Program-made: the position numbers and the translations under genes
The notes under the pieces: model-generated
What the model was told of the DNA's origin: nothing
The model's input: the letters and a program-made list of their open reading frames with translations, nothing else
Databases searched by the model: none
Part shown: in pieces, positions 3,386 through 40,181 of the stretch
Layout of the letters: each line of letters starts with the position of its first letter
How positions within the stretch are numbered: position 1 is the first letter of the stretch
Assembly (NCBI GenBank): GCA_963714525.1
Contig: CAVQPB010000004.1
Location: 39,722-103,721, forward strand
Source: an uncultured Pseudomonadota bacterium
Lineage (GTDB): Bacteria > Pseudomonadota > Gammaproteobacteria > Burkholderiales > JALYOK01
DNA length: 64,000 nucleotides
Direction: 5' to 3'

Positions 3386-4950
3386 CTAAGTTAGGGGTTT
3401 GCCCGTCAGGGAGATGGCGGTGCTTGCGCGATTGTGCAAACACTCCCGCAACGCTGTCTTTAGCACTTTCCCATAATTGTTCTTGGGTAGATCGTCAACG
3501 AAAACATAACGGCGTGGCCGCTTGAAGCGGGCGATATGCTGTAAGCAAATATTGTCGAGTTCTTGGGTGGTGATGCTCGCGCCTGGCGCGGGAACGATGA
3601 ACGCGACCACTTCCTCGCCCCATTCCTTGTGTGGGAATCCGATCACACTGGCTTGCGCGACTTTGTTGTTCAGTAGTAAAACATCTTCGATTTCGCGCGG
3701 ATAAACATTCGCGCCACCGGAGATGATCATGTCTTTCGAGCGATCTTTGATCGTCAGAAATCGACGCGAGTCTATGGCCCCGATATCACCGGTGTGCAGC
3801 CAACCGCCGCGCAAAGTAGCGGCGTTTGCTGCTTCATTTTCCCAGTAGCCGCGCATGACGCAGTCGCTTCGTGTGATGATTTCACCGACTATACCAACAG
3901 CTAAGTCGTTATCGTTGGCGTCGACGATGCGAACCTCCACGCCGGTGCGAGCGCAACCTGCAGACGCAAGCTTCGCCCTATCGTGCGTGTGAAGCGCGAG
4001 ACTTCATGATCGCGCTTGGAAAGTCCGGTGATGGTCATGGGCGCTTCGCCTTGACCGTAAATTTGGTAGAGTTTCGTTCCGAATACTTGCAACGATTTTT
4101 CTAAGTCGGTGAGATACATCGGCGCGCCGCCATACATAATACATTTGAGGTTAGCGACCCGGGCATGGGTGGCCGAGCCATCGTTCAACATGCGCACCAG
4201 CATGGTCGGCGCGGCGAAAAACGAGACGCGGTCGTAACGCTCGATCGATTCGAACATCTCGCCGGCTGAAAAGCTTCCTGAAAGGGGAATGACATTGTTG
4301 GAACCGCGCGCCAAATGCGGCAAAGCGTAAAGGCCCGAACCATGGGATAAGGGCGCGGCGTGAATAATCGTATCGCGCTCGTCGAGTGCGTCGATATCGG
4401 CGTAGTAAGCAAGACACATGAACAGCAAATTGCGCAGCGTAATGGTTGCGCCTTTTGGCCGGCCTGTGGTCCCGCTGGTATAGAACAACCAACCCGGGCT
4501 ATCGGGATGGTTATCCGTCGGCATTGAGGGCGATGCGGTGCCCATGCGCGCAACGGTCTCCGGTGTGATCTCGATGAGAACGGGTAGGGCACTCGTTCCT
4601 AATTCTTCGGCAATTCCCGCATAAAGCGCGGGCGATGCGAAGCAGGCTGACGCACCGGAATTTTCTAAGATATAGGCGAATTCTTTTCCATGTAGCTTGG
4701 CATTCATCGGGACCGGGCAAAGCCCGGCGTGCCAACAGGCATAAAGTAGCTGGAGAAAGTACGGGCTATTTTCGCTCGCAAGCGCGACGCGTGCGCCGGG
4801 TTGCATACCGGGCAAGGCGCGCAAGTATGATGCGGTCCGGGTGACTCGATCGCTGAACTCAGCGAAGTTCCAAACCAGGTTGCCGTGCGTCACGGCGGTT
4901 GCGAGCGGTGTGCGTGCCGCCGCGGCGTGAAGTGTATTTGCGAAATTCAT
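3386..4950 (-). CDS. AMP-dependent acyl-CoA synthetase/ligase (one frameshift at about 3975-4010)
   Basis: YTSGTTGRPKG and YGQGE in ORF 3901-4950. GWLHTGD, DRSKDMIISGGANVYPREIE and PKNNYGK in ORF 3386-3940. The two halves join with a 1-nt shift. Confidence 0.8.
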
Positions 4951-5945: not shown

Positions 5946-7463
5946 TTAAAGTTTTTTCCAATCCTTAGCTTGTTCGAACGCATACGCGGCACGGTAGATC
6001 GTCGCTTCGTCGAAATGTTTGCCGATCAGCATCAACCCCACCGGCAAACCTTTGCTCATGCCGCATGGAATCGACATAGCGGGATGGCCGGTCGCATCGA
6101 ACGGCGCCGTGTTCGGTATCATTTCGAATGCGCGCGCGACGATCTCTTCGATGGCGGCGCCGGGTTTCGGTATGGGCGTGGCCTTCATCGGTAGCGTCGG
6201 CATCAGTAATAGATCGTATTTTCCCAGCGCCGTGTCGTAAGCGGCGCGCAATTTGCGCGACAGGTTTTGCGCTTTGCCGTAAAAGTGGCCACGATAGTGT
6301 TGGATGAAATATTCGCCGAGAATCATGGTTAGTTTGAGCGTGTGCGACAACTCATCGGCGCGCTCTTTCCAGCGGGCGTGATGATCGATCATGCTGGTGG
6401 CATACATGCCGCGCCAGTTGAAGCCGTGGCCGTTGTCTTTCATCATCTGCTGCGTGCCGCCCTCGGCGGCGATGGGCAGCCAGATCGCGAGGCCCATGGC
6501 ATGCATCGGGATCGACACTTCCTCGACTTTGGCGCCGAGCTTCGTCAACAGTTGCGAGCCGGCGCGCACTTTCTCATCGACATCTTTTTCTGAACTGGCG
6601 AGGCCGAATCCTTCTTTGACCACGCCTATCTTCAGGCCCTTTACGCCGTCCAACATTTTCTTGGAATACTCAATCGACTTGGCATTGGCGTATTGGCGCG
6701 GATCCAGACCGTCGGGCCCGGCGAGCACTTCGAGCGCCAACGCATTGTCGGTCACATTGGCGGTCATCGGGCCGGTGTGATCGATGGTGAGTTCGATCGG
6801 CATCACGCCGGTGTAAGGCACCAGACCGTGGGTTCCTTTCATGCCGTATATACCGCAATAGGAAGCAGGAATGCGGATCGAGCCGCCCTGATCGCCACCG
6901 ATGGCGATATCCACTTCGCCCGCTGCAACTAACGCGCCGCTACCGGACGACGAACCGCCGGCGGAGTAACCCATCTTATGGGGATTGTGCACCGGACCCG
7001 TCGCGCTGGTGTGAGAGCCGCCGGAAAAGCAAAAATATTCGCACACGGATTTACCGAGGATAGTCGCGCCCGCGTCGAGTAAGCGCGTTACCACGGTGGC
7101 GTCGATATCGGGGACGTAACCTTCAAACGTCGATGCCCCATTCATCATCGGCACACCGGCGACGCAGACGTTATCTTTGATCGCCACGGTCTTGCCCGCG
7201 AGCTTGCCCTTCGCCGCGCCTTTAATAGTCGATTTGTAGTACCACGCGGCGTATTTGTTCTCGTCGCCCTCGGGCCGGTAGCCGGGCGTGCGCGGATATT
7301 TGACCTGCGGTAAATAATCGGCAGCCGCATCGACCACGTCATAGGCATCGAAGTTGCCTTGCAACAAAGTGTTGTAGGTTTTGAGTTCCTCCGGCGATAG
7401 ATCGATGCCTAAACTTTGCGCGACGTCGTCGAGTTGCGTCAGGGTAGGGCGCTTTACAGCCAT
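5946..7463 (-). CDS. Amidase (amidase-signature family, NHase-associated)
   Basis: VAIKDN (catalytic Lys), GGSSSGS, GDQGGSIRIP. Last gene of the NHase operon. Confidence 0.92.
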   Translation of the reverse strand: MAVKRPTLTQLDDVAQSLGIDLSPEELKTYNTLLQGNFDAYDVVDAAADYLPQVKYPRTPGYRPEGDENKYAAWYYKSTIKGAAKGKLAGKTVAIKDNVCVAGVPMMNGASTFEGYVPDIDATVVTRLLDAGATILGKSVCEYFCFSGGSHTSATGPVHNPHKMGYSAGGSSSGSGALVAAGEVDIAIGGDQGGSIRIPASYCGIYGMKGTHGLVPYTGVMPIELTIDHTGPMTANVTDNALALEVLAGPDGLDPRQYANAKSIEYSKKMLDGVKGLKIGVVKEGFGLASSEKDVDEKVRAGSQLLTKLGAKVEEVSIPMHAMGLAIWLPIAAEGGTQQMMKDNGHGFNWRGMYATSMIDHHARWKERADELSHTLKLTMILGEYFIQHYRGHFYGKAQNLSRKLRAAYDTALGKYDLLLMPTLPMKATPIPKPGAAIEEIVARAFEMIPNTAPFDATGHPAMSIPCGMSKGLPVGLMLIGKHFDEATIYRAAYAFEQAKDWKKL

Positions 7464-7518
7464 GAAATATTTCTCCTTGTTAGTTCGAGATAACTTGGTG
7501 GCGAGTCAACACGACTGC

Positions 7519-7860
7519 TTACCGCAGTTGATGGGCGGAGCCTGCGATAGACATGGAAAATTTTCTTGCAGCGAGTTGATCGGGGGACGTGACACCCTTC
7601 GCGACCATGATGTTTTCAGCCGCGGCCAGCCACTGCTGATAGTAAGTTTTTGGCGCGCCGCCAATGGCCTCGACGGCGGTGGCGGCGGCAACTTCCTTGG
7701 AAAAACACTCGACCCATTCGCCCCAGGTAAAGTGCCCTGCATTAGCCAACTGCACGATGATGGCAAATGCGCGCGCTTCCCACGGCTCGTTAAACTTGAC
7801 TTCGTCGTCGGCCGCGAGCGGCAGCGATTTGCAGAGCAGCGGCGATTCGGTCGACGCCAT
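7519..7860 (-). CDS. Nitrile hydratase accessory protein (P14K/NhlE-like)
   Basis: FNEPWEARAFA, FTWGEW, YYQQWLAAAE. Directly downstream of the NHase beta genes. Confidence 0.85.
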   Translation of the reverse strand: MASTESPLLCKSLPLAADDEVKFNEPWEARAFAIIVQLANAGHFTWGEWVECFSKEVAAATAVEAIGGAPKTYYQQWLAAAENIMVAKGVTSPDQLAARKFSMSIAGSAHQLR

Positions 7861-7865
7861 TTTTC

Positions 7866-8216
7866 TTACTTCGCGGCGTCCATATAGTCGTCGAACACAT
7901 CGACACGCAAGGTATCGCGTTCCGATGCGTGCGGGCCCCACACTTCCCGCGCGGTAAAGCGCACACTGTAACAATGCTGCGGTTTTTCAGGTAAACCGTG
8001 GGCGTGGGTGTCGGGAAATGCGAACACGCCGTAGTCGGTTTCAATCGTGCCATGTTTGTCGCGCAAATAACCAGGCAACCGAATATGCGTGGTTGGATTG
8101 AGATTGCGAACGCGAATGCGATCGCCGACTTTAAACAGCGGTGCGACCTTGGCGTCGACGCGCGCGGACGCTCCCTGGGCGAGCAAGCCCGGCACAATTT
8201 CTGGCGTAAGTAACAT
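7866..8216 (-). CDS. nthB: Nitrile hydratase beta subunit, C-terminal SH3-like half (separate gene)
   Basis: FKVGDRIRV, HIRLPGYLR, FPDTHAHG, YSVRFTAREVWG. Own ATG preceded by AAGGGGG. Confidence 0.85.
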   Translation of the reverse strand: MLLTPEIVPGLLAQGASARVDAKVAPLFKVGDRIRVRNLNPTTHIRLPGYLRDKHGTIETDYGVFAFPDTHAHGLPEKPQHCYSVRFTAREVWGPHASERDTLRVDVFDDYMDAAK

Positions 8217-8217
8217 G

Positions 8218-8529
8218 TTAGTTTCCCCCTTTTGCCAGTTGCGCCATACGTACGTCCAGTTCTGCCTGCGTGACGATGCCGCGCTTCGCTAGTACGGTTT
8301 CAAACGCCGTAAGCCAATGTTCGTAGTACGACGACTCAAGATAATGGGCCGGCGGCATTTGCTCGATGGCGTGACGAAATTCATCGACGGTATAGCCGGC
8401 AAAAACAAAGGTCGAAGCGAACAACCCAAACGCGCGGCCTTCCCATTTTTCGTGAAACACCGGTTCGTTCTTTTCCGGATTAATTGGGCCCAGACCGTGC
8501 CTTCCACCCAGATCGTGCATTCCGTTCAT
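8218..8529 (-). CDS. nthB: Nitrile hydratase beta subunit, N-terminal helical half (separate gene)
   Basis: MNGMHDLGG, PVFHEKWE, DEFRHAIE, YYEHWL. GAGGAG RBS upstream. Confidence 0.88.
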   Translation of the reverse strand: MNGMHDLGGRHGLGPINPEKNEPVFHEKWEGRAFGLFASTFVFAGYTVDEFRHAIEQMPPAHYLESSYYEHWLTAFETVLAKRGIVTQAELDVRMAQLAKGGN

Positions 8530-8548
8530 ATTGAGCTCCTCGTCGAGA

Positions 8549-9148
8549 TTAGGGGGATTTGGCTTTGGTGACGCCGATCATAGAATCGCGCGTGACCAAA
8601 TCGGCCAGCTGTACCTCCGACATTTTTTCCGTGCCGGGCGGACGCTCCGGCAAAACCAAATAGCGCAATTCTGCCGTGCTGTCCCAAGTACACACTTCAA
8701 CGTTGTCGGGAATTTCCGTGCCGAATTCTTTCAACACCCCGCGCGGATCGGCGACGATGCGCGCGCGATAGGGCGCGGCTTTGTACCAGACCGGCGGCAA
8801 GCCCAACGTCGGCCACGGATAGCACGAGCATAGCGTGCAGACCAACACGTTATGAACCGAAGGTGTGTTCTCGACGACGACCATGTCTTCGCCTTGCAGG
8901 CCGGAGTAACCGAGTTCTTTGATCGCCGCGGTGGCGTCAGTCAACAAACGTTTCTTGTATTCCGGATCGACCCAAGCTTTAGCGACGACTTTCGCGCCGT
9001 TGCGCGGCCCTATCTTGTTTTCGTAAGTGTCGACCAAGGCGTCGAGCGCCTTCGGATCGATCAGCCCTTTTTCAGCGAGTATGGATTCCAGTGCCTTAAC
9101 CCTCAGCGCGGGATCCGACTCTCTTTTATCCGAGTGCGATGATGCCAT
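8549..9148 (-). CDS. nthA: Cobalt-type nitrile hydratase alpha subunit
   Basis: [10 protein letters not shown] Co-type metal-binding motif, [26 protein letters not shown] before MASSHS. Confidence 0.96.
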
Positions 9149-9440: not shown

Positions 9441-10418
9441 ATGTCAAATGAAAACGGTCCAACCGACGCATTGTTACGGTTATTTCTGGAAATGGCCAAA
9501 GACGAGAGCCTAACCAAAACCGCCGAACGCCTGAATGTTTCACAACCCTCTCTAAGCCAGCACCTGCATCAACTCGAGGACGCGCTCAGCCAACGCCTAA
9601 TGGAGCGGCACGGCCGTGGATTGCGCCTGACGGAAGCCGGCAAGGAACTCGAACACCGGCTGCACGGCGTGTATCACCACATCGACATCTCCATCGCCCG
9701 GTTTCGTGGCACCGTGGGCCAGACTTCGGGAACCATTGGCATCGCCGGCGTACATAATTTGAATGTTTATTTTTTACCACCGGTAGCGCGCGGGTTTTCG
9801 GTCGAATACCCAGACGTTAACCTGCGCATCCTGGGACGAACTTCTGCCGATTCAGCTAAAGCCGTGTCGGAGGGCCATGCGGATATCGGCTTGGTCTACG
9901 GTACGAATATTTCCGATGACCGGCTGGCCATGCTGCACTTGTTTAACGAGAACATGGTTGTAGCCGCCCCGGCCGGCCACCCGATCACTGAGCGTATCCG
10001 TTCCGACGGCGCCTTACCCAAGCACACACCGGTTCTCGCCCTGCCGCGGGGTTGCGCGATTAGAAGCATGGTCGATCACGCATTTCCACCGGGACATCTG
10101 GTGATCAAGGCCGAGGTCGAGGCCCTGGATGCGATGCTGTGCCTCGCCGGAAGCGGCATGGGCGTGTGTATTTTGCCGTCCCATCTTCCCATGCGGTTCT
10201 TCGAATTCTATGGGCTCGAACGTATTGTTTTGCAGCGGCCCAAGATGATGCGGGAAGCATCGCTAATTTTCCGCAAGGATGTCGAGCAACCGCCCATTAT
10301 TCAGGCACTTGTGAGGCGGATTCGCGCGGCCGCACGGCCTTTGGAATCGCGAAAAGATGCGGAAGCGATTGCGCTGGTTGCGGGCGATCAGACGCAAACA
10401 GAAATCGTCGCAGGTTAA
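9441..10418 (+). CDS. LysR-family transcriptional regulator, divergent from the NHase operon
   Basis: HTH SLTKTAERLNVSQPSLSQHLHQLE, RLTEAG, C-terminal substrate-binding domain. Confidence 0.9.
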   Translation: MSNENGPTDALLRLFLEMAKDESLTKTAERLNVSQPSLSQHLHQLEDALSQRLMERHGRGLRLTEAGKELEHRLHGVYHHIDISIARFRGTVGQTSGTIGIAGVHNLNVYFLPPVARGFSVEYPDVNLRILGRTSADSAKAVSEGHADIGLVYGTNISDDRLAMLHLFNENMVVAAPAGHPITERIRSDGALPKHTPVLALPRGCAIRSMVDHAFPPGHLVIKAEVEALDAMLCLAGSGMGVCILPSHLPMRFFEFYGLERIVLQRPKMMREASLIFRKDVEQPPIIQALVRRIRAAARPLESRKDAEAIALVAGDQTQTEIVAG

Positions 10419-10746: not shown

Positions 10747-12255
10747 ATGCAGTCGGATTTAGACGCCAAACTCCAGAAACGCAAGCTTGATGCGCTGAAA
10801 CGCGGCATACACCGAGTTCGCGGTGACAGTTCTACCCCATTTTCTATTCATGTCGTAGGCCTAGGCAAAGCGGGCTGCGACGTGATTACTCAGATGTTGC
10901 GCGACATAGCGGCTTCGCATTTGGCCGACGATCGAGTTCGTATTACGGCGCTTGCGGTGGATATCGGCGACAGGGCACTTGCCCAGGTTCGAGACGTTGC
11001 TAGCACATTAAAGTCTGATAGGGTATTTGTCGAAACGTTTGCCCTCGATGTTCCTAGTCGGGCAGAACTGCAAGATAGCCTCCAGCGCCATCGCGACTTC
11101 TTGAAACTGGAGTACCCGCTTTATTATTTTAATCCCCATTACGAACCCTGGATTCCAAATGACGTAGTCGTTTCGCCTAACGACGGGCATTTTGATCGAG
11201 CCGTCGTGAAGGCGCTATATAGCCGCGCATACTACGATGGTGCGCGTCCTCTTGCTGCTTCGCTACGACGTTTCCGCGAAAGTGTCGAGACGACGTCACT
11301 GGATTCAATGGTTTGCATCGTCTTCGGTCTCGGAGGCGGTACCGGTAGCGCTGTCGCCACCGATCTAGCGCGGCATTTGTCGACCGTCGAATTCGGCCAT
11401 CGCGTGGTGGTAACCGGTATCGGTATCGCGCCCTGCGAAGGCGATGATCCTAAGCATCGATCGGGGGCCGTATTTCCAGTAATTTCTGAAATCGATTGTA
11501 TGCTGGACGAAACCAAGAACCGCGGCGTGGTAGCGGCGTTCGGCGATTTGTACCGTAATCCATATACCGGCGGTTTTATCATTGTTCCGCAGCAACCCAC
11601 TTGGCACGGAACTAAAGACCTTGCCGCGACCCACCAGCGCATAGATCGTGAGCTAGCGTCGCTCCTACTCGCGGACCACGGCGCGCAGTTGTGGGAAACC
11701 TTGCGTTTTCTCAATTGGGTTGCGGCTCCTTCGACCCAGCATTCGGCGGCGCGCACGCCTTACGGCCCGCAGTGGTTACATTTGTGGAATTTCGTAGATA
11801 CCGATAATAAAGGGAAGCTCACGACGACCGATTAGCCTAAAGCAGCTCGGCGTTCGCTCGAGCTATCAACCCGAGATCATCGAGTTGCGTTCGCCCGTTC
11901 CGGATGACCCGGAACTTACGACGATCGTGACGAGCATCGATCAATTCTTCAAGCCCGAGGCGAACACACTCATTCGCAAGGCGGCGTAAAGGGCTCGGTG
12001 CAGTTCATCTTGCCGCGTTTGCGCAAGACCGATCTCGACTTGTTTTTTGACGCGCAAGATGCTTACGACGCTCTGTCGAAAACGCAAAAATTGCTTGCGC
12101 ACGCTTGGCTTTTGGACCTTGGCATCATGCTCTGTGAACCCGGCGCCCATCTGGAAGGCATGGCCGGCGCCGGTCTATGGAGTAGCGACAGTTGGGTCGC
12201 TGTGCCATACGACGCGATTCGGATCGCCGAGGAACCACGCAAGGCGGCCGCGTAG
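10747..12255 (+). CDS. Tubulin/FtsZ-signature protein, putative beta subunit of an atypical (AnhB-like) nitrile hydratase; two compensating frameshifts
   Basis: VVGLGKAG and FGLGGGTGS motifs; collinear paralog of 12773-14461. Frame 1 stops at 11835, frame 2 carries ISLKQLGVRSSYQPEIIELR, frame 1 resumes by about 11975. About 502 codons if repaired. Confidence 0.65.
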
Positions 12256-12334: not shown

Positions 12335-12661
12335 ATGCCCCTTGATTGGTCGGTGGTTAAATCGAAATATGGGACGGGCTTCAAAGTGCCGACGGTAGCC
12401 GGAGGCAAGTTTCTTAAGGTTGCACGTGCCGATGATGAAGCGATCTACATCGAATCTCCGATCTGGAGCGCGGTGTTGCGCCGAGCCGATCTTGAAAAGG
12501 CGGTCGAGTTGATCGAAACGGGCACTATTTCCCGCGATCCCGGATTGTTCGTCGAAGATTACATGCTCTATGTATCGAATACGCGCGCGACATCGGTCGC
12601 GCATATTTTGCGCGATCTTGGTTTTCTCGATCAGACCGAGACGTTTTCGATTAGGTGTTGA
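12335..12661 (+). CDS. 108-aa protein between the two tubulin-like paralogs; putative AnhE-like metallochaperone
   Basis: GGAG RBS before ATG 12335 (MPLDWSVVKSKYG). Function inferred from position and size only. Confidence 0.6.
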   Translation: MPLDWSVVKSKYGTGFKVPTVAGGKFLKVARADDEAIYIESPIWSAVLRRADLEKAVELIETGTISRDPGLFVEDYMLYVSNTRATSVAHILRDLGFLDQTETFSIRC

Positions 12662-12772: not shown

Positions 12773-14461
12773 ATGAGTGGATCTATCTATCACAGCGCAA
12801 CTGGCGCCCAGTCGCCCCACTGTATGCACGCCATCGGCATCGGCCGCACTGGCATGGTCTACATCGAGGCGCTGCTGCGCACCGGTGAAATCGAGGATTT
12901 GCTGGCTGATCCGCGCGCGACTTTCGCGGCGATGGTGGTCGATATCGGCGATCAAGACATGGGTATCGTTACCGATTATGCTAACTCGTTCAAAAAGCGC
13001 CTCGAATCGCGCGGCATCCCAATCGAGCGCTTTCAATTCCAGGCAATCGCATTGCCGGTGCCGGCCAAGGACGAATTCTTCGAGGGCATGAACCGTACCC
13101 GCGAGTGGTTAAAGTTAGAGTATCCGCGCTATTACTGGAACCCGAACTTCGAGTCCTATGTGCCGCACAAGTACGAGCTTCCGAAGGCCGGCAACCATTT
13201 CCCGCGCGCGGTGGCCAAGGGCATCTATGCCAACGCCTATTACGCCGGCGACCGCCCCATGGATTTAGCGTTACGCAAGTTCGTTGACCAGGTCGAGAAG
13301 GCGACGCTGCCGTCGATGGTAACGGTGTGCTTCAGCTTGGCGGGCGGCACCGGCAGCGGCATCGTGGTTGACCTGGCGCGGCACTTGTCCAACGTCAAGC
13401 TCGGCCGGCGCATCCCGGTCATCGGTGTCGGCCAGTTGTCCTCCAGTGGGGATCCAGACACCTATCATAACAACCCCACGATGTATACCACGCTCAATGA
13501 CCTTGACTGCATGCTTGACGACGATAAGAACGCCGGCGTTACCGCGGTGTGGGGCGACCTGTATCGCAGCCCGTTCACCGGCGGCTTCTTCGTGGTCAAC
13601 CCCGAGCAGAGTTGGCAACGCCTGACCGCCTACACCACCACCGGCGAGAAAGAGATCCGCCAAGGCTTCAAGGAGATGGTGACCAATCGCTTCGTCGCCG
13701 ATTCGTTCATGCGCTTCGCGGTGCTGGAGAACGGACGCGTGCTGTTCAGAGCGATGCGCCCGGCGGGATTCACCGGTGCGCCGCACGAGACGCTATCGGC
13801 CAAGTCACGCAACTGGACACTATTCGATGTCGCTAAGCTGAGTCACCCTGGTGTGCAGGTGCTGCCGGGCGAAGCGGGCTCAAAGTGGGATTCGGTTCTG
13901 GCGCAATGGATCGATTTCGTGCCCAAGTACAGCGGACTGAAAGATGGTTTCAAGACCGACTACGCCGAAGTGCATGTTCACGCCTCACGTGACATGGGCT
14001 TCGACATGCTCGATAAAGCCTTTAAAGATATGGTTACTAAGCAGTACCTGCTTGACGGGGACTCGACCTACCAGGGCTACCACCATGAGTTCTTCGATGC
14101 GCTGACCGCGTATGGGAATATTATTCTTCCGGGCGTCGCCAAGACCGACTTGACTGCCTTCTGGGAAAGCCAGAAGAACTACGACAAACTGACTTGGGAA
14201 GAAAAACTGAACGAGCACGCCTGGTTGATCGACATCGGCCCCATGCTGTCCGAACCTGCGATCCGTTTCGAAGGCATGGCCGGTGAGTGCATCTGGGGTT
14301 GCGCGTGTTGGGTAGTCGTGCCCTACGATCAATTGCGGGGCGACAAGTTACCACCGCCTAACCGCAAGGTGATCATGGAAGAAGGTATTGCCATGATGAC
14401 CAAGACCGTAGTTAAGACGCCTGGTGGCGATGCTAAGAAGCCTGCCAAGGCGCACGCTTAG
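12773..14461 (+). CDS. Tubulin/FtsZ-signature protein with C-terminal CIWGCAC motif, putative alpha (metal-binding) subunit of an atypical (AnhA-like) nitrile hydratase
   Basis: Strong RBS AAGGAGGT. AIGIGRTG, FSLAGGTGSG, Cys cluster at 14288-14308. 562 aa. Confidence 0.7.
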   Translation: MSGSIYHSATGAQSPHCMHAIGIGRTGMVYIEALLRTGEIEDLLADPRATFAAMVVDIGDQDMGIVTDYANSFKKRLESRGIPIERFQFQAIALPVPAKDEFFEGMNRTREWLKLEYPRYYWNPNFESYVPHKYELPKAGNHFPRAVAKGIYANAYYAGDRPMDLALRKFVDQVEKATLPSMVTVCFSLAGGTGSGIVVDLARHLSNVKLGRRIPVIGVGQLSSSGDPDTYHNNPTMYTTLNDLDCMLDDDKNAGVTAVWGDLYRSPFTGGFFVVNPEQSWQRLTAYTTTGEKEIRQGFKEMVTNRFVADSFMRFAVLENGRVLFRAMRPAGFTGAPHETLSAKSRNWTLFDVAKLSHPGVQVLPGEAGSKWDSVLAQWIDFVPKYSGLKDGFKTDYAEVHVHASRDMGFDMLDKAFKDMVTKQYLLDGDSTYQGYHHEFFDALTAYGNIILPGVAKTDLTAFWESQKNYDKLTWEEKLNEHAWLIDIGPMLSEPAIRFEGMAGECIWGCACWVVVPYDQLRGDKLPPPNRKVIMEEGIAMMTKTVVKTPGGDAKKPAKAHA

Positions 14462-14639: not shown

Positions 14640-15455
14640 ATGGACGATAGAATTCGCCCTTACCTAATCGAGCAGCAACCCTACTACCAAGCGGCGGGCA
14701 AGGAAATCGCGCTATTCAGCGCCGCCTTTGCGCGGCGCCTGCCGATGATACTGAAAGGTCCGACGGGCTGCGGCAAAACGCGGTTTGTCGAACATATGGC
14801 GTGGCGTCTAAAGCTGCCGTTGATCACGCTGGCCTGCAACGAAGACATGACGGCATCGGACTTGGTGGGGCGTTACCTGCTGGACACCGACGGCACCGTT
14901 TGGCATGACGGCCCGCTGACGTTGGCTGCGCGCTACGGCGCGATCTGCTACCTGGACGAAGTCGTCGAGGCGCGCCAGGACACCAACGTGATCATCCATC
15001 CGCTTACCGACGAGCGGCGTATCCTGCCCCTCGACAAACGCGGCGAACTCGTCAAAGCCCACGCGGACTTTCATCTGGTGGTGTCTTACAACCCCGGCTA
15101 TCAAAGTGCCGCCAAGGATCTCAAACAGTCCACCAAACAACGTTTCGGCGCCATCGACTTCGACTACCCACCGACCGACATTGAAACCAGTATCGTCGCC
15201 CACGAGAGCGGTGTCGCAGCGGACCTCGCTGCAAAACTGGTGGGCATCGCGCATCAGTCGCGCGCACTATGCGGGCGAGGGTTGGAGGAGGGCATCTCCA
15301 CCCGAATGCTGATCCACGCTGGCGGACTCATCGCCGACAACATAGCCGCACATGACGCCTGCCGACTGGCGATGACCACTCCGCTCACGGACGATAAGGA
15401 TTTGCTCGGCGCCCTAGACGGCTTTGTCGAAAACTATTTTGGACCGGCGCCATGA
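14640..15455 (+). CDS. cbbQ: CbbQ/NirQ/NorQ family AAA+ ATPase (copy 1)
   Basis: [46 protein letters not shown]. Confidence 0.9.
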   Translation: MDDRIRPYLIEQQPYYQAAGKEIALFSAAFARRLPMILKGPTGCGKTRFVEHMAWRLKLPLITLACNEDMTASDLVGRYLLDTDGTVWHDGPLTLAARYGAICYLDEVVEARQDTNVIIHPLTDERRILPLDKRGELVKAHADFHLVVSYNPGYQSAAKDLKQSTKQRFGAIDFDYPPTDIETSIVAHESGVAADLAAKLVGIAHQSRALCGRGLEEGISTRMLIHAGGLIADNIAAHDACRLAMTTPLTDDKDLLGALDGFVENYFGPAP

Positions 15456-17455
15456 TTACCGACGACGTGGCGCTACGGTTGCAAGTGTTACGCAACAACG
15501 ATCGCCCGGCGCACGAGGCGCTAGTGCAAGTCATGACCGATCTGAACGGACATTTCAGCGGACAACTCAATAAGGCGGCTCTGATCGATTTGCTGTGCCA
15601 AATCAGCGTGGAATCGCCCCCATCCGCCGTCGCGCTGATCGATAGGCTCACTTCGTTACCCATCGAGCTAGATGTGATGACCTTACGCAAGTGGGCGTTT
15701 CACGGCTTGCAGCGTTATCGCAGCGAACCGGCTAAACGCCTAAGGCATTTTGAGGTCGACGATCCATTCGCCTTCGCCGACCGTGAGGCCGAGATCGATA
15801 GCGAACACCTGCTCGCCAGGCGTGAGGAATTACTACACTATTTGGCCGGCTTCGGGTTCTCCAATTTGCGGCTTGAGTTACAGGAACCTTCCCCTATCGG
15901 CGCCTTCGCGCAAGGCCCGGCGATAGGCGATGACCTGCTGCTTTTCCCTCGACGCTTCGGCGCTAATGTATCTAATAGGCGCGAGCTGCTATATCGCGCC
16001 GTCGCTGCGCACGCCGCGGCGCACTTACAGTTCTCCCCGCGAGCTCGGCTTGCGGGTAATCGGCAGCCGATGCTGATCGCGATTATGTCGCTGATTGAAG
16101 ATGCCCGTGTGGAGCGGCTCCTGGCGCAGCGCTACCCCGGTCTAGGCGCGTTGTGGGGGCTGTTCCACGTTGCTACCCGGACTAGCGCTGGTTTTGATTT
16201 CGCCGGATTGGCTGCACGCCTTGCCCATGCGGTACACGATCCCGATTACGTCGATAGCAACTCGTGGGTGATGAAGGGCCGCCAACTGTTTGAGGAGGCC
16301 GCGCACGATTTGCACGACATCACCGCATTCGACAAGGTCGCTCGTTTGTTAGCGATCGATATCGAGAAAATGCGCTTGGCGTTCAAAGCGAGCGCCTATC
16401 GGGTCGAGCCGATTTATCGCGACGATAATTCCCTGTTGTGGAATTTCAATCCTCCCGCGACTGTGGATGAGACGGAAACGGTGATGCGCGAGAAATTCGA
16501 ACTCAAGCCGCTGGAATTGAATGAACAGCAAATGCAAAACCTGCACCGAGTCGAAGTCGACCAACGCCGTCGCACGCACTACCCGGAGTGGGATTGCAAG
16601 CTCGAAGCCGTGCGCGAGAACTGGGCGACCGTCATCGAAACTGAATCCGCGGCGAAACCGGGAACAACTCGTAGATCTTCGCGCGCCATTTCCCATGCCG
16701 GCATTCGCTTTAAAGGACTGGAACGTATTCCTGATCGATCGCTCCGCCTCAATCGTTTAGAGGAAGGCGACGAGCTCGACTTGAACGCCGCCGTGGACAG
16801 CATGGTGTCGCGCCGGAGCCGCGCAATCCCGGATTCGCGCATCTTCCGGCGTCATGGCCGGCGCCGCCGCTCCACCGCAATCGTGTTATTGATGGACTTG
16901 TCGGCCTCCACCCAACGCTTCGTGCCCGGGAGTTTCACCAGTGTGCTCGACGTCGAAAAACGTGCCGCGACGTTGGTGGCTGAATCGCTGGATCCATCCC
17001 GCGACCGGGTGGCGGTGCATGGCTTTTCGTCCAACGGCCGGCAAGAAGTGAATTACGTCTGTATTAAAGATTTCGATGAATCGTTCGGGCTCGAGCAAAA
17101 AAGGCTTTTGCACCGGCAGGAAGGGCGTCTGTCGACCCGCATGGGCGCCGCGTTGCGGCACGCGAGCCTTGCTCTTGGTCGCGAGGAGGCGGACCACAAG
17201 GTCATCTTGTTGCTTACCGATGGCGAGCCTTCGGATATCGATGTGTTCGAGGAAGACTATCTGGTCGAAGATACCCGCCACGCCGTGACCACTGCCGCCG
17301 CCCGGGGCATCAAAACTTTCTGCCTAACTCTAGACCGGCACGCCGACGCCTATGTGCGCCGTATCTTCGGTATGCGCAATTACATGATCGCCGACAAGGC
17401 CGACGCATTTGCGGGCAGCACCGGCCAGGCGCTGGTGAAATTGATCGCCCATTGA
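15452..17455 (+). CDS. CbbO/NorD-like VWA-domain adaptor (copy 1)
   Basis: EDARVE, YPEWD, MIDAS DLSAS, STRMGAALRHA, TDGEPSDID. ATGA overlap with cbbQ. Confidence 0.88.
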   Translation: MITDDVALRLQVLRNNDRPAHEALVQVMTDLNGHFSGQLNKAALIDLLCQISVESPPSAVALIDRLTSLPIELDVMTLRKWAFHGLQRYRSEPAKRLRHFEVDDPFAFADREAEIDSEHLLARREELLHYLAGFGFSNLRLELQEPSPIGAFAQGPAIGDDLLLFPRRFGANVSNRRELLYRAVAAHAAAHLQFSPRARLAGNRQPMLIAIMSLIEDARVERLLAQRYPGLGALWGLFHVATRTSAGFDFAGLAARLAHAVHDPDYVDSNSWVMKGRQLFEEAAHDLHDITAFDKVARLLAIDIEKMRLAFKASAYRVEPIYRDDNSLLWNFNPPATVDETETVMREKFELKPLELNEQQMQNLHRVEVDQRRRTHYPEWDCKLEAVRENWATVIETESAAKPGTTRRSSRAISHAGIRFKGLERIPDRSLRLNRLEEGDELDLNAAVDSMVSRRSRAIPDSRIFRRHGRRRRSTAIVLLMDLSASTQRFVPGSFTSVLDVEKRAATLVAESLDPSRDRVAVHGFSSNGRQEVNYVCIKDFDESFGLEQKRLLHRQEGRLSTRMGAALRHASLALGREEADHKVILLLTDGEPSDIDVFEEDYLVEDTRHAVTTAAARGIKTFCLTLDRHADAYVRRIFGMRNYMIADKADAFAGSTGQALVKLIAH

Positions 17456-17499: not shown

Positions 17500-17982
17500 A
17501 TGTCTATCAAACCAGGAGATCAAGTTCCCGCCGCGACCTTCAAGCAGCTTACTGCTAGCGGCATGGCGAATATCGACACAGGCAAATTGCTAAAAGGAAG
17601 AAGGGTTGTGTTGTTCGGCCTGCCCGGGGCTTACACGCCCGTCTGCTCAGCTAGTCACTTGCCGGGATTCGTGGCGAGAGCCGCCGAGCTAAAATCCCAG
17701 GGCGTCGACGAGATCGTGTGCGTCTCAGTCAATGACCCATTCGTGATGCACGCTTGGGGAAAGGAACATGGCGCCGACGGCAAAGTAACCATGTTGGCGG
17801 ATGCCGACGGTGCATTCACCCGCGCCATGGGACTGAGCCTGGATCTGCCGGATTTTGGATTGAGCGGGCGCTCAGAACGCTACTCGATGGTGGTCGACAA
17901 CGGCGTGGTGAAGAACATCAACGTCGAAAAGAGTGTACTCGACCATGGTGTTAGTAGTGCTACTTCTTGTATGATTAGTTGA
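17500..17982 (+). CDS. Peroxiredoxin (Prx5/type II)
   Basis: PGAYTPVCSASHLPGF, SVNDPFVM, RSERY. Confidence 0.92.
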   Translation: MSIKPGDQVPAATFKQLTASGMANIDTGKLLKGRRVVLFGLPGAYTPVCSASHLPGFVARAAELKSQGVDEIVCVSVNDPFVMHAWGKEHGADGKVTMLADADGAFTRAMGLSLDLPDFGLSGRSERYSMVVDNGVVKNINVEKSVLDHGVSSATSCMIS

Positions 17983-18003: not shown

Positions 18004-18993
18004 ATGGCCGAGCAACCGAAAAGCGATGTGCGAATTCCCGTGACGGTGATCACGGGTTTTCTCGGATCGGGTAAAACCACGCTGCTGAACCATATTTTGA
18101 GTCAGCAGCATGGCCGCAGAATCGCTGTCATCGTCAATGAGTTCGGCGAGGTGGGGATCGACGGTCAACTCATCGTCAAAGACGATGACGAACAGTTAGT
18201 CGAATTCAACAATGGCTGTTTGTGCTGCACCGTGCGCGGCGATCTCATCGAAACCATCGATAAGCTGCGCTCCCGTGCGGGGCAGCTCGACGCGATCCTG
18301 ATCGAGACGACGGGTTTGGCGGATCCTGCCCCGGTCGCATCGGTATTTTTTGTCTCGGATAAAGTCAGGGCGGGTGTGCGGCTCGATTCCTTCGTCACGG
18401 TGGTGGATGCGGTCAATCTGGAACAGAACTTGAGCCAGAATCATGAGGCCTATGAGCAAGTCACGTTCGCCGATATCACGCTGATCAACAAGACGGACTT
18501 GGTTTCCAAAGAGGATTTGCAGCGCGTCGAAGCGCGTATCCGCGCCCTCAATCCGCTGACTCGCATCTACTATACGGCGCACGGCGTGGTCGATTTGGCA
18601 AACATTCTCGACGTCGGCGCCTTCGAACTCGAAGCCAAGCTCGAAGTCGATCCGAAGTTCCTGGATGACTTGGAGCACGAACACGATCCTGAAATCGGTT
18701 CCATCGTGCTGCGAGAAGATAGGCCCATCGACGTCAATCGGTTCATGACCTGGATGACCTCGATCTTGCAAGAACAGGGCGAGGATCTGTTCCGTAGTAA
18801 AGGTGTATTTTATGCGCAGGGATTTCGCGAGCGGGTTATTTTTCAGAGCGTGCGCATGTTAACGTCCATGCGTCCATTCAAGCTGTGGCAAGCCGACGAA
18901 ATAAAGCGTAGCGAGTTTGTCATGATTGGGCGGAAGTTGAATCGTGAAAAACTAGCCGAGGGTTTAGCAAGCTGCGTCGCGCGCACCCACTAG
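18004..18993 (+). CDS. COG0523/CobW-family metallochaperone GTPase
   Basis: TGFLGSGKTT, NEFGE, GCLCC, ETTGLADP, NKTD, short His patch HEHD. Confidence 0.92.
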   Translation: MAEQPKSDVRIPVTVITGFLGSGKTTLLNHILSQQHGRRIAVIVNEFGEVGIDGQLIVKDDDEQLVEFNNGCLCCTVRGDLIETIDKLRSRAGQLDAILIETTGLADPAPVASVFFVSDKVRAGVRLDSFVTVVDAVNLEQNLSQNHEAYEQVTFADITLINKTDLVSKEDLQRVEARIRALNPLTRIYYTAHGVVDLANILDVGAFELEAKLEVDPKFLDDLEHEHDPEIGSIVLREDRPIDVNRFMTWMTSILQEQGEDLFRSKGVFYAQGFRERVIFQSVRMLTSMRPFKLWQADEIKRSEFVMIGRKLNREKLAEGLASCVARTH

Positions 18994-19073: not shown

Positions 19074-19292
19074 ATGACTACGCAATCAACCCATAACACC
19101 ATCGCCACAACCCCCAGTTTGGCGGGTAGCGATTTACTGGTTCACGGCGCTGCCATCGGCAGCAAATGGCCGGCATTGTTCGCCGTCATCCTGGGTGCGG
19201 TTGTACTTTTCGGCGTCGGTTTTTCGAACCTCAGCGTGAGCCACAACGCTGCTCACGATACTCGCCATGCCATGGTTTTTCCATGCCATTAA
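19074..19292 (+). CDS. cbtB: Cobalt transporter subunit CbtB
   Basis: Single TM helix and C-terminal HNAAHDTRHAMVFPCH. AGGAG RBS. Confidence 0.88.
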   Translation: MTTQSTHNTIATTPSLAGSDLLVHGAAIGSKWPALFAVILGAVVLFGVGFSNLSVSHNAAHDTRHAMVFPCH

Positions 19293-20041
19293 GCGGACAG
19301 CGATCTTTCCGGCACATCGTGTTGTCCGCGGTGATTGCCGGATTGATCACCGGCGTGTTGATCACGTTGGTGCAGATGTTCACCACCGTGCCACTCATCG
19401 CCCAAGCGGAAGTGTATGAGCAAGGCGGTGTAAAACCCGAAGCCGTTGCGCCGGTCGCCAAAGATGCGGTCGATGCGGCGCACGACCATGATGCTCATGA
19501 TCATGGGGCGGAATCCTGGGCGCCGAAAGATGGGTTTGAGCGCACGTTTTATACCGCGCTTACGTCCGTCCTAGTTGCGATTGGCTACGCTCTGCTCCTG
19601 GGAGCTTGTTTTTCGCAAATGCGATCGGTCGGCTGGCGCACCGGGTTGGCGCTCGGCGTCGCTGGGTTTCTGGTGTTTCAACTTGCGCCGGCGCTCGGGC
19701 TTCCTCCGCAACCGCCAGGATCACCTTATGCCGATCTGGTGGCGCGGCAACTATGGTGGGTAGGCACTGCGGTGGCAACCGCGTTGGGATTGGGCGCTTG
19801 GTTTTATGCTCGTACACACTCGAAGGCATTGTGGATACCGGTCGGCATTGTGTTGATCTTGCTTCCCCATGTCATCGGTGCGCCGCAGCCCGTCGAAGGC
19901 CAGGTTGCTATCTTGCCCAAAGAGCTATCGCAACGCTTTGCGTTGTTGGCGTTATTCACGGCCGCTGTTTTCTGGATCGTGCTGGGAAGCCTGCAAGGCT
20001 ATGTGTTCGGCAGGCTGGGTCGGCGTCAGGCGCCCGGTTAG
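19283..20041 (+). CDS. cbtA: Cobalt transporter subunit CbtA
   Basis: PLIAQAEVYE, His patch HDHDAHDH, WAPKDGFER, LGLPPQPPG, RQLWW, PHVIGAP. Confidence 0.9.
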   Translation: MPLSGQRSFRHIVLSAVIAGLITGVLITLVQMFTTVPLIAQAEVYEQGGVKPEAVAPVAKDAVDAAHDHDAHDHGAESWAPKDGFERTFYTALTSVLVAIGYALLLGACFSQMRSVGWRTGLALGVAGFLVFQLAPALGLPPQPPGSPYADLVARQLWWVGTAVATALGLGAWFYARTHSKALWIPVGIVLILLPHVIGAPQPVEGQVAILPKELSQRFALLALFTAAVFWIVLGSLQGYVFGRLGRRQAPG

Positions 20042-20044
20042 CGA

Positions 20045-20395
20045 ATGGAGAGAAAACCGGACGACCCGCCGCTCGTTTACGACGCGCACATTTTTTGTTG
20101 TATTAACGAGCGGCCGCCCGGTCACCTAAGGGGATGCTGTGGCAGCAAGGGCGCTAGACGGCTTTGCGACTACATGTGCCGCCGGGCGATGGCCACCGGA
20201 CTGGGGCACAGAGTTCGAGCGAATTTAGCAGGATGTTTGAACCAGTGTGAGTTTGGTCCGACCATGGTGATCTATCCCGAAGGCGTTTGGTATACCTATA
20301 ACAATGAGGACGACATAGACGAAATATTAACGCGCCACGTGATCAGGGGTGAGCGCGTCGATAGGTTGCTGCTGCACCCTGATCAATCGAAGTAA
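20045..20395 (+). CDS. Thioredoxin-like [2Fe-2S] ferredoxin
   Basis: HIFCCINER...GCC...GCLNQC, GPTMVIYPEGVWY. Confidence 0.88.
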   Translation: MERKPDDPPLVYDAHIFCCINERPPGHLRGCCGSKGARRLCDYMCRRAMATGLGHRVRANLAGCLNQCEFGPTMVIYPEGVWYTYNNEDDIDEILTRHVIRGERVDRLLLHPDQSK

Positions 20396-32667: not shown

Positions 32668-33708
32668 ATGTTACATGGAGATATTTCTAGCAGTAATGAT
32701 TGCGTCGGCGTCGCCGTAGTTAACTACAAGATGCCGCGTATGCACACCAAGAAAGAGGTGATAGAAAATTGCCACAAGATCGCCGACATGGTCACCGGCA
32801 TGAAGCTCGGCCTGCCGGGCATGGACTTGGTGATCTTCCCGGAGTATTCCACCCATGGCATCATGTACGACAGCAAGGAAATGTACGACAACGCTGCGTC
32901 TATTCCTGGCGAAGAAACGGAAATTTTCGCCGCTGCGTGCCGCAAGGCGAATGTGTGGGGCGTGTTTTCTCTCACCGGCGAACGCCACGAAGAGCATCCC
33001 AACAAAGCCCCGTATAACACGCTCATCCTGATGAACAATCAAGGTGAAATCGTGCAGAAGTACCGCAAGATCATGCCCTGGGTGCCGATCGAAGGCTGGT
33101 ATCCCGGCAATTGCACTTACGTGTCCGATGGTCCGAAGGGCCTCAAGATCAGCCTGATCATTTGCGACGATGGCAACTATCCGGAAATCTGGCGCGACTG
33201 CGCCATGCGTGGCGCCGAGTTGATCATCCGCTGCCAAGGCTACATGTATCCCGCCAAAGAGCAGCAGATTATCATGGCCAAAGCCATGGCCTGGGCAAAT
33301 AATACCTACGTTGCGGTCGCGAACGCCGCCGGCTTCGACGGCGTCTATTCCTATTTCGGCCATTCCGCCATCATCGGCTTCGACGGCCGTACTTTGGGCG
33401 AATGCGGTGAGGAAGACATGGGCGTGCAATACGCCGCGCTATCGAAGGGACTGATCCGAGACGCGCGCAAGAACATGCAGTCCGAGAATCATTTGTTCAA
33501 GCTGCTGCATCGTGGATACACCGGCAAAATCAATTCGCGTGAAGGCGACAAAGGCGTCGCGGCATGCCCGTACGATTTCTACAAGAAGTGGATCACCGAT
33601 CCGGAAGGCGCGCGCGAGCAAGTAGAAGCCATTACCCGTAAGACCGTTGGAACGTCGGAAGCACCGATTCCCGGCATTCCCAACGAGAAAGAGGTCGCGC
33701 ATCGGTAA
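32668..33708 (+). CDS. amiE: Aliphatic amidase (nitrilase superfamily)
   Basis: [22 protein letters not shown]-terminus; triad motifs [17 protein letters not shown]. Confidence 0.96.
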
Positions 33709-33847: not shown

Positions 33848-34294
33848 ATGCAAACACTGACGCATATTCTAGGCTACGCAACCGATCACACGATCGCGCA
33901 CCGGCTTCATCTTCTAGAGCACGATGGCGCGGTGCATTACGTAACCCTGAGTAAGCAAGACACGTTACGGCATCGTCTGCGCGCGACTACCGACCGCGGC
34001 GACGAGATTGCCATCGCCTTACCGCGCTCGGAACAACTGGCAAATGGCGCCGTCTTACTCCTGGAAGCTAATCGCGCCGTGGTAGTGCGCATGGAGACCG
34101 AGCGATGGCTGATATTGAAAGCCAGGGATACGGCGGCCGCTTTGGAAGTGGGTTATTTCGCCGGTAATATGCACTGGAAGGTTAAGTTCGATGGCGACGC
34201 TATCAAGATTGCCATGGAGGGACCTGAGCAAGGGTATTTGGATCGACTACACCATCTTTTGGCTGATGGAAAGACTGCGCGTATCGATGAGTAA
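33848..34294 (+). CDS. ureE: Urease accessory protein UreE-like (no His tail)
   Basis: RHRLRATTDRG, LANGAVL, GYFAGNMHW (GNxH motif). Confidence 0.75.
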   Translation: MQTLTHILGYATDHTIAHRLHLLEHDGAVHYVTLSKQDTLRHRLRATTDRGDEIAIALPRSEQLANGAVLLLEANRAVVVRMETERWLILKARDTAAALEVGYFAGNMHWKVKFDGDAIKIAMEGPEQGYLDRLHHLLADGKTARIDE

Positions 34295-34961: not shown

Positions 34962-34977
34962 CGTAACAGGATAGGCT

Positions 34978-35679: not shown

Positions 35680-35681
35680 TC

Positions 35682-37396: not shown

Positions 37397-37397
37397 T

Positions 37398-39916: not shown

Positions 39917-39963
39917 TACGAACCTCTTGGTTTGCTATCAGGCTTCGAGCCTATGATCGTCGC

Positions 39964-40131
39964 CACCCTCATCCCAACCTTCTTCCGCCCTCGCGGGAGA
40001 AGGAGAAAATCCCCTCTCCCCCGAAATCGGGGGAGAGGGTCAGGGGCGAGGCGGGGAATTCGCGAAGCATGCTTCGCGCCCGCCGAGCGGCGTCTCGCTG
40101 CAGCGAGACGCGCGCACCGCAGGTGAGGGGG
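39964..40131. repeat. Composite palindromic repeat element (CCCTCTCCC/GGGAGAGGG type)
   Basis: CCCTCATCCCAACCTTCT...GGGAGAAGG, CCCTCTCCCCCG-AAAT-CGGGGGAGAGGG, inner hairpins GCGAAGCATGCTTCGC and GCGTCTCGCTGCAGCGAGACGC, ending GGTGAGGGG. Confidence 0.7.
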
Positions 40132-40181
40132 TATTCAGTTATTGAGTGAGTGACCTCAAATTCTGTAATGAGCTATAACCG

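Follow-up and report, generated by a model that had tools for sequence, protein, structure and literature searches.

The locus

In a window of 64,000 nucleotides (nt) from an uncultured Burkholderiales bacterium (contig CAVQPB010000004.1 of assembly GCA_963714525.1; "the window" below means this whole stretch) we found two adjoining genes, here called Q1 and O1, that encode a CbbQ/NorQ-type MoxR AAA+ ATPase and an adaptor with a VWA domain, and that lie directly behind a gene for a tubulin-like enzyme subunit (Table 1). The original prediction had described this arrangement, and the open reading frames (ORFs), Pfam matches and structure alignments bear it out. Pairs of a MoxR AAA+ ATPase and a VWA protein are very common, few of their clients are known (Rubisco, nitric oxide (NO) reductase and a few others) and their mode of action is debated. 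The presence of such a pair in an operon for a probable nitrile hydratase of the Anh type suggests that the clients of the CbbQ/NorQ chaperone class include a new enzyme. Genes for Rubisco or NO reductase had been said to be missing from the window, and a Pfam scan of its 60 ORFs indeed gave no match to RuBisCO_large or to the COX1 family.

The pair is part of a tight string of genes on the forward strand. The start of O1 reaches 4 nt into the end of Q1, nothing resembling a terminator or promoter was detected in the 178 nt that separate anhB from Q1, and the junction of anhB and Q1 is bridged by contigs of four independent studies. The AnhE-like, CobW-like and CbtA genes of the string provide a cobalt-handling context.

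Table 1. Positions of the Q1/O1 pair, of the surrounding gene string and of other relevant features in the window
Feature	Position	Strand	Remark
LysR regulator	9441-10418	+	first gene of the tight string
anhA-like gene, tubulin/FtsZ-fold subunit	10747..12255	+	Pfam Tubulin, E 2e-11; frame broken in the assembly
anhE-like small gene, 108 aa	12335..12661	+	between both tubulin-like genes
anhB-like gene, 562 aa, tubulin/FtsZ fold	12773..14461	+	C506-x3-C510-x-C512
AnhB C-terminal tail KTPGGDAKKPAKAHA	14414..14458	+	end of the 562-aa protein; model confidence low over 538-562
Q1, CbbQ/NorQ-type MoxR AAA+ ATPase, 271 aa	14640..15455	+	Pfam, alignment to solved structures
Q1 Walker A, GPTGCGKT	14757-14780	+	
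Q1 Walker B, YLDEVVEA, D106-E107	14955-14960	+	
O1, VWA adaptor, 667 aa	15452..17455	+	Pfam VWA, fold matches
O1 MIDAS	DLSAS 16895-16909; T562 17135-17137; TDGE 17216-17227	+	
Peroxiredoxin (Redoxin family)	17500..17982	+	Pfam; operon-like spacing behind O1
CobW/ZigA-like G3E GTPase metallochaperone	18004..18993	+	Pfam and NCBIfam profile matches
CbtA, proposed cobalt transporter subunit	19166..20041	+	Pfam CbtA, E 8e-48; TIGR02458 above cut-off
Small 2Fe-2S-ferredoxin-like protein	20045..20395	+	NCBIfam NF041613, E 1e-20, below cut-off
TonB-dependent receptor, then PepSY protein	behind the ferredoxin-like gene	+	end of the string
Classical cobalt nitrile hydratase, alpha and beta split in two genes	7866-9148	-	divergent from the Anh string
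amiE (aliphatic amidase)	32668-33708		15 kb from Q1/O1
Urease genes	33848-38916		
Q2 and O2, second Q/O pair	39115-42488		behind ureD

The ATPase Q1 and the adaptor O1

By sequence, both proteins are members of known families, Q1 of the CbbQ/NorQ-type MoxR AAA+ ATPases and O1 of the CbbO/NorD-type VWA adaptors. Q1 has the build of the MoxR proteins CbbQ, NirQ and NorQ, with an AAA_5 domain (PF07728, E 3e-32) followed by CbbQ_C (PF08406, E 8e-28), both above their cut-offs, in a chain of about 270 amino acids (aa) with intact Walker A and Walker B. It could be aligned from end to end with solved structures of CbbQ (5c3c, E 1e-118) and NorQ (9qhd, E 2e-86), and its motifs GPTGCGKT and YLDEVVEA match the motif positions of both. 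In all 17 orthologues examined, the start aligns with the ATG at 14640. A longer ORF starting with GTG at 14424 was rejected, because it overlaps anhB and it is the ATG at 14640 that is conserved.

In O1, the MIDAS residues (metal-ion-dependent adhesion site) are D482-x-S484-x-S486, T562 and D590; all 14 orthologues have them unchanged, and they are conserved across all O groups that were compared, as befits a VWA adaptor. Intact Walker motifs and an intact MIDAS (DLSAS, TDGE) had both been predicted, correctly so. The structure model of O1 (predicted local distance difference test score, pLDDT, of 71) consists of a confident helical N-terminal domain (residues ~1-330), a low-confidence linker (333-471) and the VWA domain (472-667), in which confidence is also low over 594-600. 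When the VWA domain was compared with known folds using Foldseek, the top six matches were all the NorD VWA domain in the NorQD complexes of 2026. We also found a motif in the N-terminal domain, H187-x3-H191...E216-D217-x-R219-x-E221 (window 16010-16114), that is conserved in Anh-linked, amiE-linked and Rubisco-linked adaptors and absent from the NorB-linked ones; it is a candidate site for binding a metal or the client in the CbbO class. A complex prediction for O1 residues 420-667 with AnhB scored 0.00 and gave no verdict in either direction.

The upstream enzyme: a probable nitrile hydratase of the AnhA/AnhE/AnhB type

The tubulin-like enzyme upstream of Q1 fits, by its sequence, a known though obscure type, the cobalt acetonitrile hydratase AnhA/AnhE/AnhB. 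A tblastn search of plasmids with the 562-aa AnhB gave a match on pRHL2 of Rhodococcus jostii RHA1 (48% identity over 99% of the length), and the three genes correspond one by one and in the same order: a 514-aa tubulin-like protein of RHA1 matches window positions 10783-12222 (40% identity), a 99-aa ORF matches 12335-12631 (37% identity, E 2e-22) and a 568-aa protein matches 12782-14422 (48.6% identity, 566 columns; RHA1 reference NC_008270.1 163335-166915). Both loci thus have two paralogous large subunits flanking a gene of about 100 codons. The order on pRHL2 is aliphatic amidase, tubulin-like (514 aa), hypothetical (99 aa), hypothetical (568 aa), a helix-turn-helix protein and a nickel/cobalt transporter, with the three genes in question annotated as hypothetical or tubulin-like in the RHA1 record. 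Gene order and gene sizes suggest that this locus is the published anhA-anhE-anhB, which is likewise reported to lie on a plasmid. The RHA1 type of acetonitrile hydratase was reportedly described in 2007 by Okamoto and Eltis, with Okamoto et al. 2010 said to be a further primary source. For the RHA1 enzyme, the gene order is given as alpha-AnhE-beta and AnhE is described as a cobalt metallochaperone (PMC3511329, PMC7193024).

Because of this gene-for-gene match, the enzyme is not a novel hydratase. The original prediction had proposed a new class of client in the form of a putative hydratase; the new client is supported in so far as neighbourhood and tree position point to neither Rubisco nor NO reductase, and the hydratase is probably of a type already described. 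This tubulin-fold nitrile hydratase is widespread and very conserved, and it is still mostly annotated as hypothetical.

The AlphaFold (AF2) model of AnhB (pLDDT 74, predicted template modelling score 0.78, from an alignment of 28 sequences) had tubulin, FtsZ, CetZ or TubZ proteins as all of its top 50 Foldseek matches, for which reason the label of tubulin fold stands; at the level of sequence the matches to solved tubulin structures are marginal only (E about 0.2). Three cysteines of AnhB, C506, C510 and C512 (window 14288-14308), are present in every one of the 28 sequences compared. They belong to a C-terminal stretch that is poorly modelled, some 50 residues ahead of the tail, are missing at the aligned place of the AnhA paralogue, and form a candidate metal site; the motif C-x3-C-x-C is reminiscent of the cysteine claw that classical nitrile hydratases have.

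The anhA-like gene requires a comment. A 362-aa ORF is the front portion of a gene for about 500 aa whose frame is broken twice in the assembly: beyond a stop at 11833-11835, similarity to intact orthologues is found in the next frame (11837-11986), and from near 11985 it is again the first frame that matches. In two other studies, the contigs (X1 and X6) have one base fewer at 11832 and one more behind 11972/11973, which are the two break points, and other genes of the genome are split as well (cbbL on contig C6, ureC at 35875-37396, an acyl-CoA synthetase gene at 3386-4950, and Q2). For these two reasons the breaks are probably assembly errors, and the split genes suggest frequent indel errors across the assembly; a strain-specific lesion is a possible alternative explanation. 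A fusion of a small tubulin-like gene to AnhE in Proteobacteria was considered and rejected, as the two are separate ORFs.

Occurrence and synteny of the pair

To see how often the pair accompanies the hydratase, species-representative genomes were scanned with AnhB. The best 80 of 119 confirmed relatives (about 59-92% identity) were taken as loci and come from alpha-, beta-, gamma- and delta-proteobacterial and cyanobacterial records, both genomes and metagenome-assembled genomes (MAGs). Their constant core is anhA-anhE-anhB followed by a CobW-like gene. AnhE was found in 75 of the 80, and the five exceptions are contigs starting at anhB, or a divergent paralogue. For 67 loci, 3 kb or more of sequence lies downstream of anhB; there anhB is followed by a CobW-like gene in 51, by Q1 in 14, by a peroxiredoxin gene in one, and by something else or nothing in one. 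When short loci are included, Q1/O1 lie directly behind anhB in 17 of the 80 loci; in L018 they follow anhB with cobW in between. The hosts are Burkholderiales, Rhizobiales and one Rhodobacterales MAG, and include the culturable Rhizobium subbaraonis JC85 and Xanthobacter sp. NM-25.

We compared 12 long loci with the pair and 40 without it, scoring presence within 10 kb. A CobW-like gene was found in 10 of the 12 and in all 40, and a peroxiredoxin gene in 6 and 27, respectively. A ferredoxin-like gene recurs behind the CobW-like gene in most related loci. Since most Anh operons, including the RHA1 locus, do without Q/O, the pair is an accessory add-on in one part of the family, and AnhE is not replaced. 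The co-occurrence of the pair with the tubulin-like subunits that the original prediction had led us to expect is therefore seen in part, directly in the 17 loci and in the three genomes mentioned below, while most Anh operons lack the pair.

A second sample was led by O1 and consisted of 401 genomes of the order. Proteins of the O1 type (at least 77% identity) occurred in G000, G469 and G743 only, and AnhB occurred in exactly the same three genomes; five further genomes of the same genus have neither an O1-type protein nor AnhB. G469 has the full string, and the contig of G743 ends within O1. Co-occurrence in three related genomes is consistent with linkage and is no strong proof of it. An O1-led scan of metagenomes yielded 38 loci, mostly with Rubisco-linked or unlabelled pairs, and no orthologue above 45% identity among them.

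Two side observations concern the same loci. L020 and L025, both long loci with the pair, lack a CobW-like gene in the 10 kb scored. A third AnhB-like paralogue, which is shorter (matches of ~370-455 aa, 41-47% identity) and which the window does not have, follows O1 in L020, L021, L025, L041, L042 and L044 and follows the ferredoxin-like gene in L065-L073.

Phylogeny of Q and O, and other possible clients

For comparison, Q matches were collected from a 401-genome sample of the phylum, and 40 neighbourhoods were labelled by their upstream gene (form-I Rubisco 9, form-II Rubisco 7, cNorB 7, amiE 6, the rest other or unknown). Trees were made by quick searches, with IQ-TREE for Q (85 rows) and under LG+G4 for O (80 rows), with support from the Shimodaira-Hasegawa-like approximate likelihood ratio test (SH-aLRT).

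The O tree places the Anh-linked adaptors in a clade of 16 rows with SH-aLRT 100 and a long stem (0.58), all members of which are found in Anh operons. This clade is apart from the Rubisco-linked CbbO proteins (18 rows, 99), and likewise from two groups linked to amiE and from NorD and its relatives (18 rows, 100). The context labels need 10 changes on this tree, where the minimum is 8. In the Q tree the NorB-linked rows form one clade and the Rubisco-linked rows a group of 18, and 17 Anh-linked rows are grouped (SH-aLRT 93) within a starred clade of 21 rows that includes four amiE-linked rows. The Anh and Rubisco groups of this tree lie within a common group of 40 rows (support 90). The separation of the O1 clade is thus clearer in the O tree than in the Q tree; the pair does not group with the Rubisco activases, in which the Q tree agrees at weaker support, and, as the phylogeny proposed with the original prediction was meant to decide, it falls outside both the Rubisco-linked and the NorB-linked clades and into clades of its own.

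A first alternative is that Q1/O1 are an ordinary CbbQO Rubisco activase that drifted away from a cbb operon. Q1 is indeed closer to solved CbbQ (E 1e-118) than to NorQ (2e-86), the genome has a form-I Rubisco, and the common 40-row group joins the Anh and Rubisco groups of Q. However, this Rubisco adjoins a gene for a CbbX-type AAA+ protein in a full cbb operon on another contig (with genes for CbbR, FBPase, PRK, transketolase, GAPDH and PGK), and neither Q1 nor O1 falls within the Rubisco-linked clades. In addition, tblastn detected no Rubisco gene in any of the 18 loci with the pair, and three of five other pair-carrying genomes, for which completeness is not given, gave no match to RuBisCO_large (PF00016). 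A drifted activase is therefore extremely unlikely, and the form-I Rubisco, which had been named beforehand as a finding that would speak against a new client, is present in the genome with a CbbX of its own. The genome holds a second match to the RuBisCO family, fused to a sugar-kinase-like domain, which is probably a Rubisco-like protein.

Similarly, the pair might be a displaced NorQD that matures the cytochrome-c-type NO reductase (cNOR) of the genome in trans. In favour of such a role, a cNorB-like gene on contig C11 (464 aa, PDB 3o0r_B, E 2e-89) has no norQ or norD adjoining it in a 96%-complete genome in which Q1/O1 and Q2/O2 are the sole pairs of this kind. We nevertheless consider it very unlikely, as Q1 and O1 are outside the NorB-linked clades, the N-terminal domain of O1 has the CbbO-type motif that NorB-linked rows lack, and the synteny with anhB is conserved across classes. 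Moreover, some cNORs are described as functioning without NorQD (PMC12067857), and the 217-aa ORF upstream of the cNorB-like gene is without a cytochrome c domain. The cNorB-like gene lies at 82934-84166 of its contig (locus L097); the genome also has a qNOR gene.

The most serious rival client is the aliphatic amidase AmiE, the enzyme that would take the amide on to the acid. The pair would serve AmiE, as may also be the case in the widespread amiE-Q-O modules, its place beside anhB being due only to a shared nitrile/amide island. The closest relatives outside the Anh clade directly follow amiE (L133, L050 and L016/L017 in the Q tree, L133 and L050 in the O tree; also L168 and L208), and amiE lies within 10 kb in 7 of the 12 long loci with the pair. 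AmiB of Pseudomonas aeruginosa is presumably a CbbQ/NorQ-type protein. The gene for this ATPase, amiB, belongs to the amidase operon and is poorly described, its product being presented as a hypothesised chaperone (PMC12591593). Against an amidase client, the amiE gene of the window is 15 kb away, the other 5 of the 12 long loci have no amiE within 10 kb, and the O1 clade is separated from the amidase-linked rows by its stem of 0.58. At least seven loci (L005, L009, L016, L017, L020, L021 and L025) have separate anhB-Q1-O1 and amiE-Q-O strings, and the occurrence of both strings in one locus suggests two clients. We therefore judge an amidase client improbable, if less so than Rubisco or NO reductase. 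The amiE-Q-O module itself is widespread (21 of 84 context-labelled Q rows; for instance L140, L141, L152, L154 and L065-L078). Aliphatic amidase is not known to have a metal cofactor.

The C-terminal tail of AnhB

The 562-aa protein was predicted to end in a low-complexity tail, and it does end in ...KTPGGDAKKPAKAHA. All 16 AnhB proteins with Q1/O1 behind them end in ...TPGG(D/E/Q)...(K/R/Q/E)(A/E/Q)HA, and the final HA was found in 16 of 16 AnhB proteins with the pair versus 0 of 41 assessable ones without it, which have variable ends or stop directly behind ...TVVxTP. Three further proteins, from loci not assessable for the pair (L006, L008 and L039), also end in HA. L050 passes the 70% threshold for Q without being a true carrier of the pair, as its Q/O pair follows amiE. 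When the AnhB tree was built from an alignment stripped of the tail columns, all pair-linked proteins fell in one starred clade, whose 18 rows comprise 16 with the pair and two that could not be assessed for it. As all of them are in one clade, the association of tail and pair amounts to one evolutionary event and carries no statistical weight; the variant operon with tail and pair seems to travel as a unit across Burkholderiales, Rhizobiales and the Rhodobacterales MAG.

The tail had been thought of as a handle on which the ATPase would pull. In the solved NorQD, as described in PMC13036017 and PMC9976466, a finger from the VWA domain of the adaptor itself sits in the pore of the AAA+ ring, and the client, according to the proposal made there, is gripped by the MIDAS through acidic surface residues, with a contribution of the N-terminal domain. 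Because the pore is occupied by the VWA finger, pulling on the AnhB tail is a poor fit; with the link between tail and pair being a single contrast, the idea of a handle is not supported. A possible role of the tail is that of a MIDAS-docking element. In its most specific form, the conserved ...TPGG(D/E)xKKxAKAHA would be gripped by the MIDAS of O1, and Q1/O1 would pry open the three-cysteine segment of AnhB for cobalt from the CobW-like GTPase and AnhE. We regard this form as rather unlikely, though it would, if true, be the first case of an ATP-driven MoxR/VWA metal inserter for a soluble, non-haem, non-tetrapyrrole cobalt enzyme.

Proposed role of the pair

On balance, we think that Q1/O1 are probably a dedicated accessory remodeller that helps to mature or reactivate the upstream hydratase AnhA/AnhB. 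That the client link is to the Anh enzyme, and to neither the Rubisco nor the NO reductase system, is supported by the neighbourhood and the tree position. The sequences show the gene identities, the intact motifs, the conserved adjacency and the separate clades; binding of the pair to the hydratase, the subunit that is bound and the effect of the remodelling are our inference. By analogy with NorQD and CbbQO, six Q1 subunits would form a ring, and one O1 would insert its VWA finger into the pore of this ring. O1 would hold the hydratase in two ways, by the metal of its MIDAS, to which an acidic group of AnhB would bind, and by its N-terminal domain. ATP hydrolysis would then twist O1 and so open the cysteine-bearing C-terminal part of AnhB. 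The result could be either the entry of cobalt, together with AnhE and the CobW-like GTPase, or the release of a dead state of the enzyme (mis-metallated, over-oxidised or inhibitor-bound). We place maturation by metal loading slightly ahead of reactivation because of the cobalt-handling neighbours (AnhE, the CobW-like GTPase and CbtA) and the conserved cysteines near the C-terminus of AnhB. Reactivation is kept open because of the closer kinship to CbbQO and because most operons manage without the pair.

Several points weigh against a dedicated role on the hydratase. In 51 of the 67 assessable Anh operons cobW and not the pair comes next, and no Q/O lies within 9 kb of the one in RHA1, so the pair cannot be essential to this type of enzyme. 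The nearest outside relatives (L133, L050, L168 and L208) follow amiE, with which an amidase client is compatible, and the genome's cNorB-like gene lacks norQD of its own, with no pair of this kind in the genome apart from Q1/O1 and Q2/O2. The Anh group of the Q tree, at 93, is not starred, and both trees are quick searches with SH-aLRT as their only support. Anh-linked rows were ascertained through AnhB, so that their shared Anh context is in part a product of the sampling; the tests that started from O1, with three related genomes, address this weakly. The anhA-like gene is frame-broken in the assembly, and the probable equation of the pRHL2 locus with anhA/E/B draws on gene order and sizes. 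Finally, the support consists of sequence, synteny and trees, with binding and activity of the pair being predicted.

Comparison with known systems

The pair resembles CbbQ/CbbO in the full-length alignment of Q1 with solved CbbQ, in the N-terminal HxxxH...EDxRVE motif and MIDAS that O1 shares with Rubisco-linked adaptors, and in the same gene order with close spacing. It differs from CbbQ/CbbO in having no adjoining Rubisco gene, in forming a separate clade in both trees, and in the neighbours of O1, which are a cobalt hydratase and metal-handling genes. With 667 aa, O1 is also ~100 residues shorter than O2 of the window (768 aa). With NorQ/NorD it has in common the AAA+ ring with an adaptor made of N-terminal domain, linker and VWA domain, the fold of the O1 VWA domain being closest to NorD, and the insertion of non-haem iron into cNOR would parallel the role proposed here. 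Unlike NorQ/NorD, Q1/O1 are outside the NorB-linked clades, do not share the O1 motif with them and have no nor genes in the window, and their client would be a soluble cobalt enzyme instead of a membrane haem-copper oxidase. Since Q1/O1 have the defining neighbourhood and clade of neither system, they do not appear, by sequence, to be a Rubisco activase of the CbbQO type or a NorQD.

Three other systems are related in function or in parts. AnhE and the nitrile hydratase activators act in the same enzyme system, in the maturation of the cobalt centre as described for AnhE (PMC3511329); AnhE is a small, ATP-independent protein, whereas Q1/O1 would be ATP-driven and come on top of AnhE and the CobW-like protein, in one sub-clade of the operons only. 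The amiE-Q-O modules have a Q/O pair directly behind amiE and include the nearest relatives of the Anh-linked pair, but have another upstream gene and lie mostly in separate clades. CobS/CobT of the aerobic cobaltochelatase is likewise an AAA+/VWA motor for cobalt insertion, with weak similarity between Q1 and CobS (E 2e-7). It is distant, however, and its target is a tetrapyrrole on CobN and not a metal site of a protein.

In the openly accessible literature we found no link between nitrile hydratases and CbbQ or MoxR-type pairs, and no joint treatment of tubulin-like proteins and CbbQ; papers available by subscription were outside this search. If the proposed role is true, a pair acting on a soluble two-subunit enzyme with an easy nitrile-to-amide assay would be a convenient test system, in which the grip of the MIDAS and the role of the N-terminal domain, as well as the choice between metal loading and repair, could be addressed. 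The more specific reading with the tail as docking element, taken together with the amiE-Q-O modules, would if true mean that CbbQO-like pairs are a general service for nitrogen-scavenging hydrolases and hydratases and not Rubisco specialists.

Other genes of the nitrile/amide island

On the minus strand of the window (5946-9148), divergent from the Anh string, lie the genes of a classical nitrile hydratase, with VCTLCSC in the alpha subunit and with one gene each for the N-terminal and the C-terminal part of beta, and of an amidase-signature amidase. By sequence, the island thus appears to encode two unrelated nitrile hydratases. A further conceivable client of Q1/O1 is the classical cobalt enzyme at 7866-9148. 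Enzyme and pair share one island in the window, and classical genes are near the Anh genes also in L004, L005, L012 and L014. Still, no more than 3 of the 12 long loci with the pair have a classical alpha gene within 10 kb, as do 3 of the 40 without it, and the closest relative of the window's locus (L003, of the same genus) has none in the 10 kb upstream of anhB. A role on the classical enzyme is thus hardly credible.

The second pair of the window differs from the first in its surroundings. Q2 lies behind ureD and is frame-broken, and O2 is sister to the Rubisco-linked CbbO proteins (support 99) and not grouped with the amiE-linked pairs.

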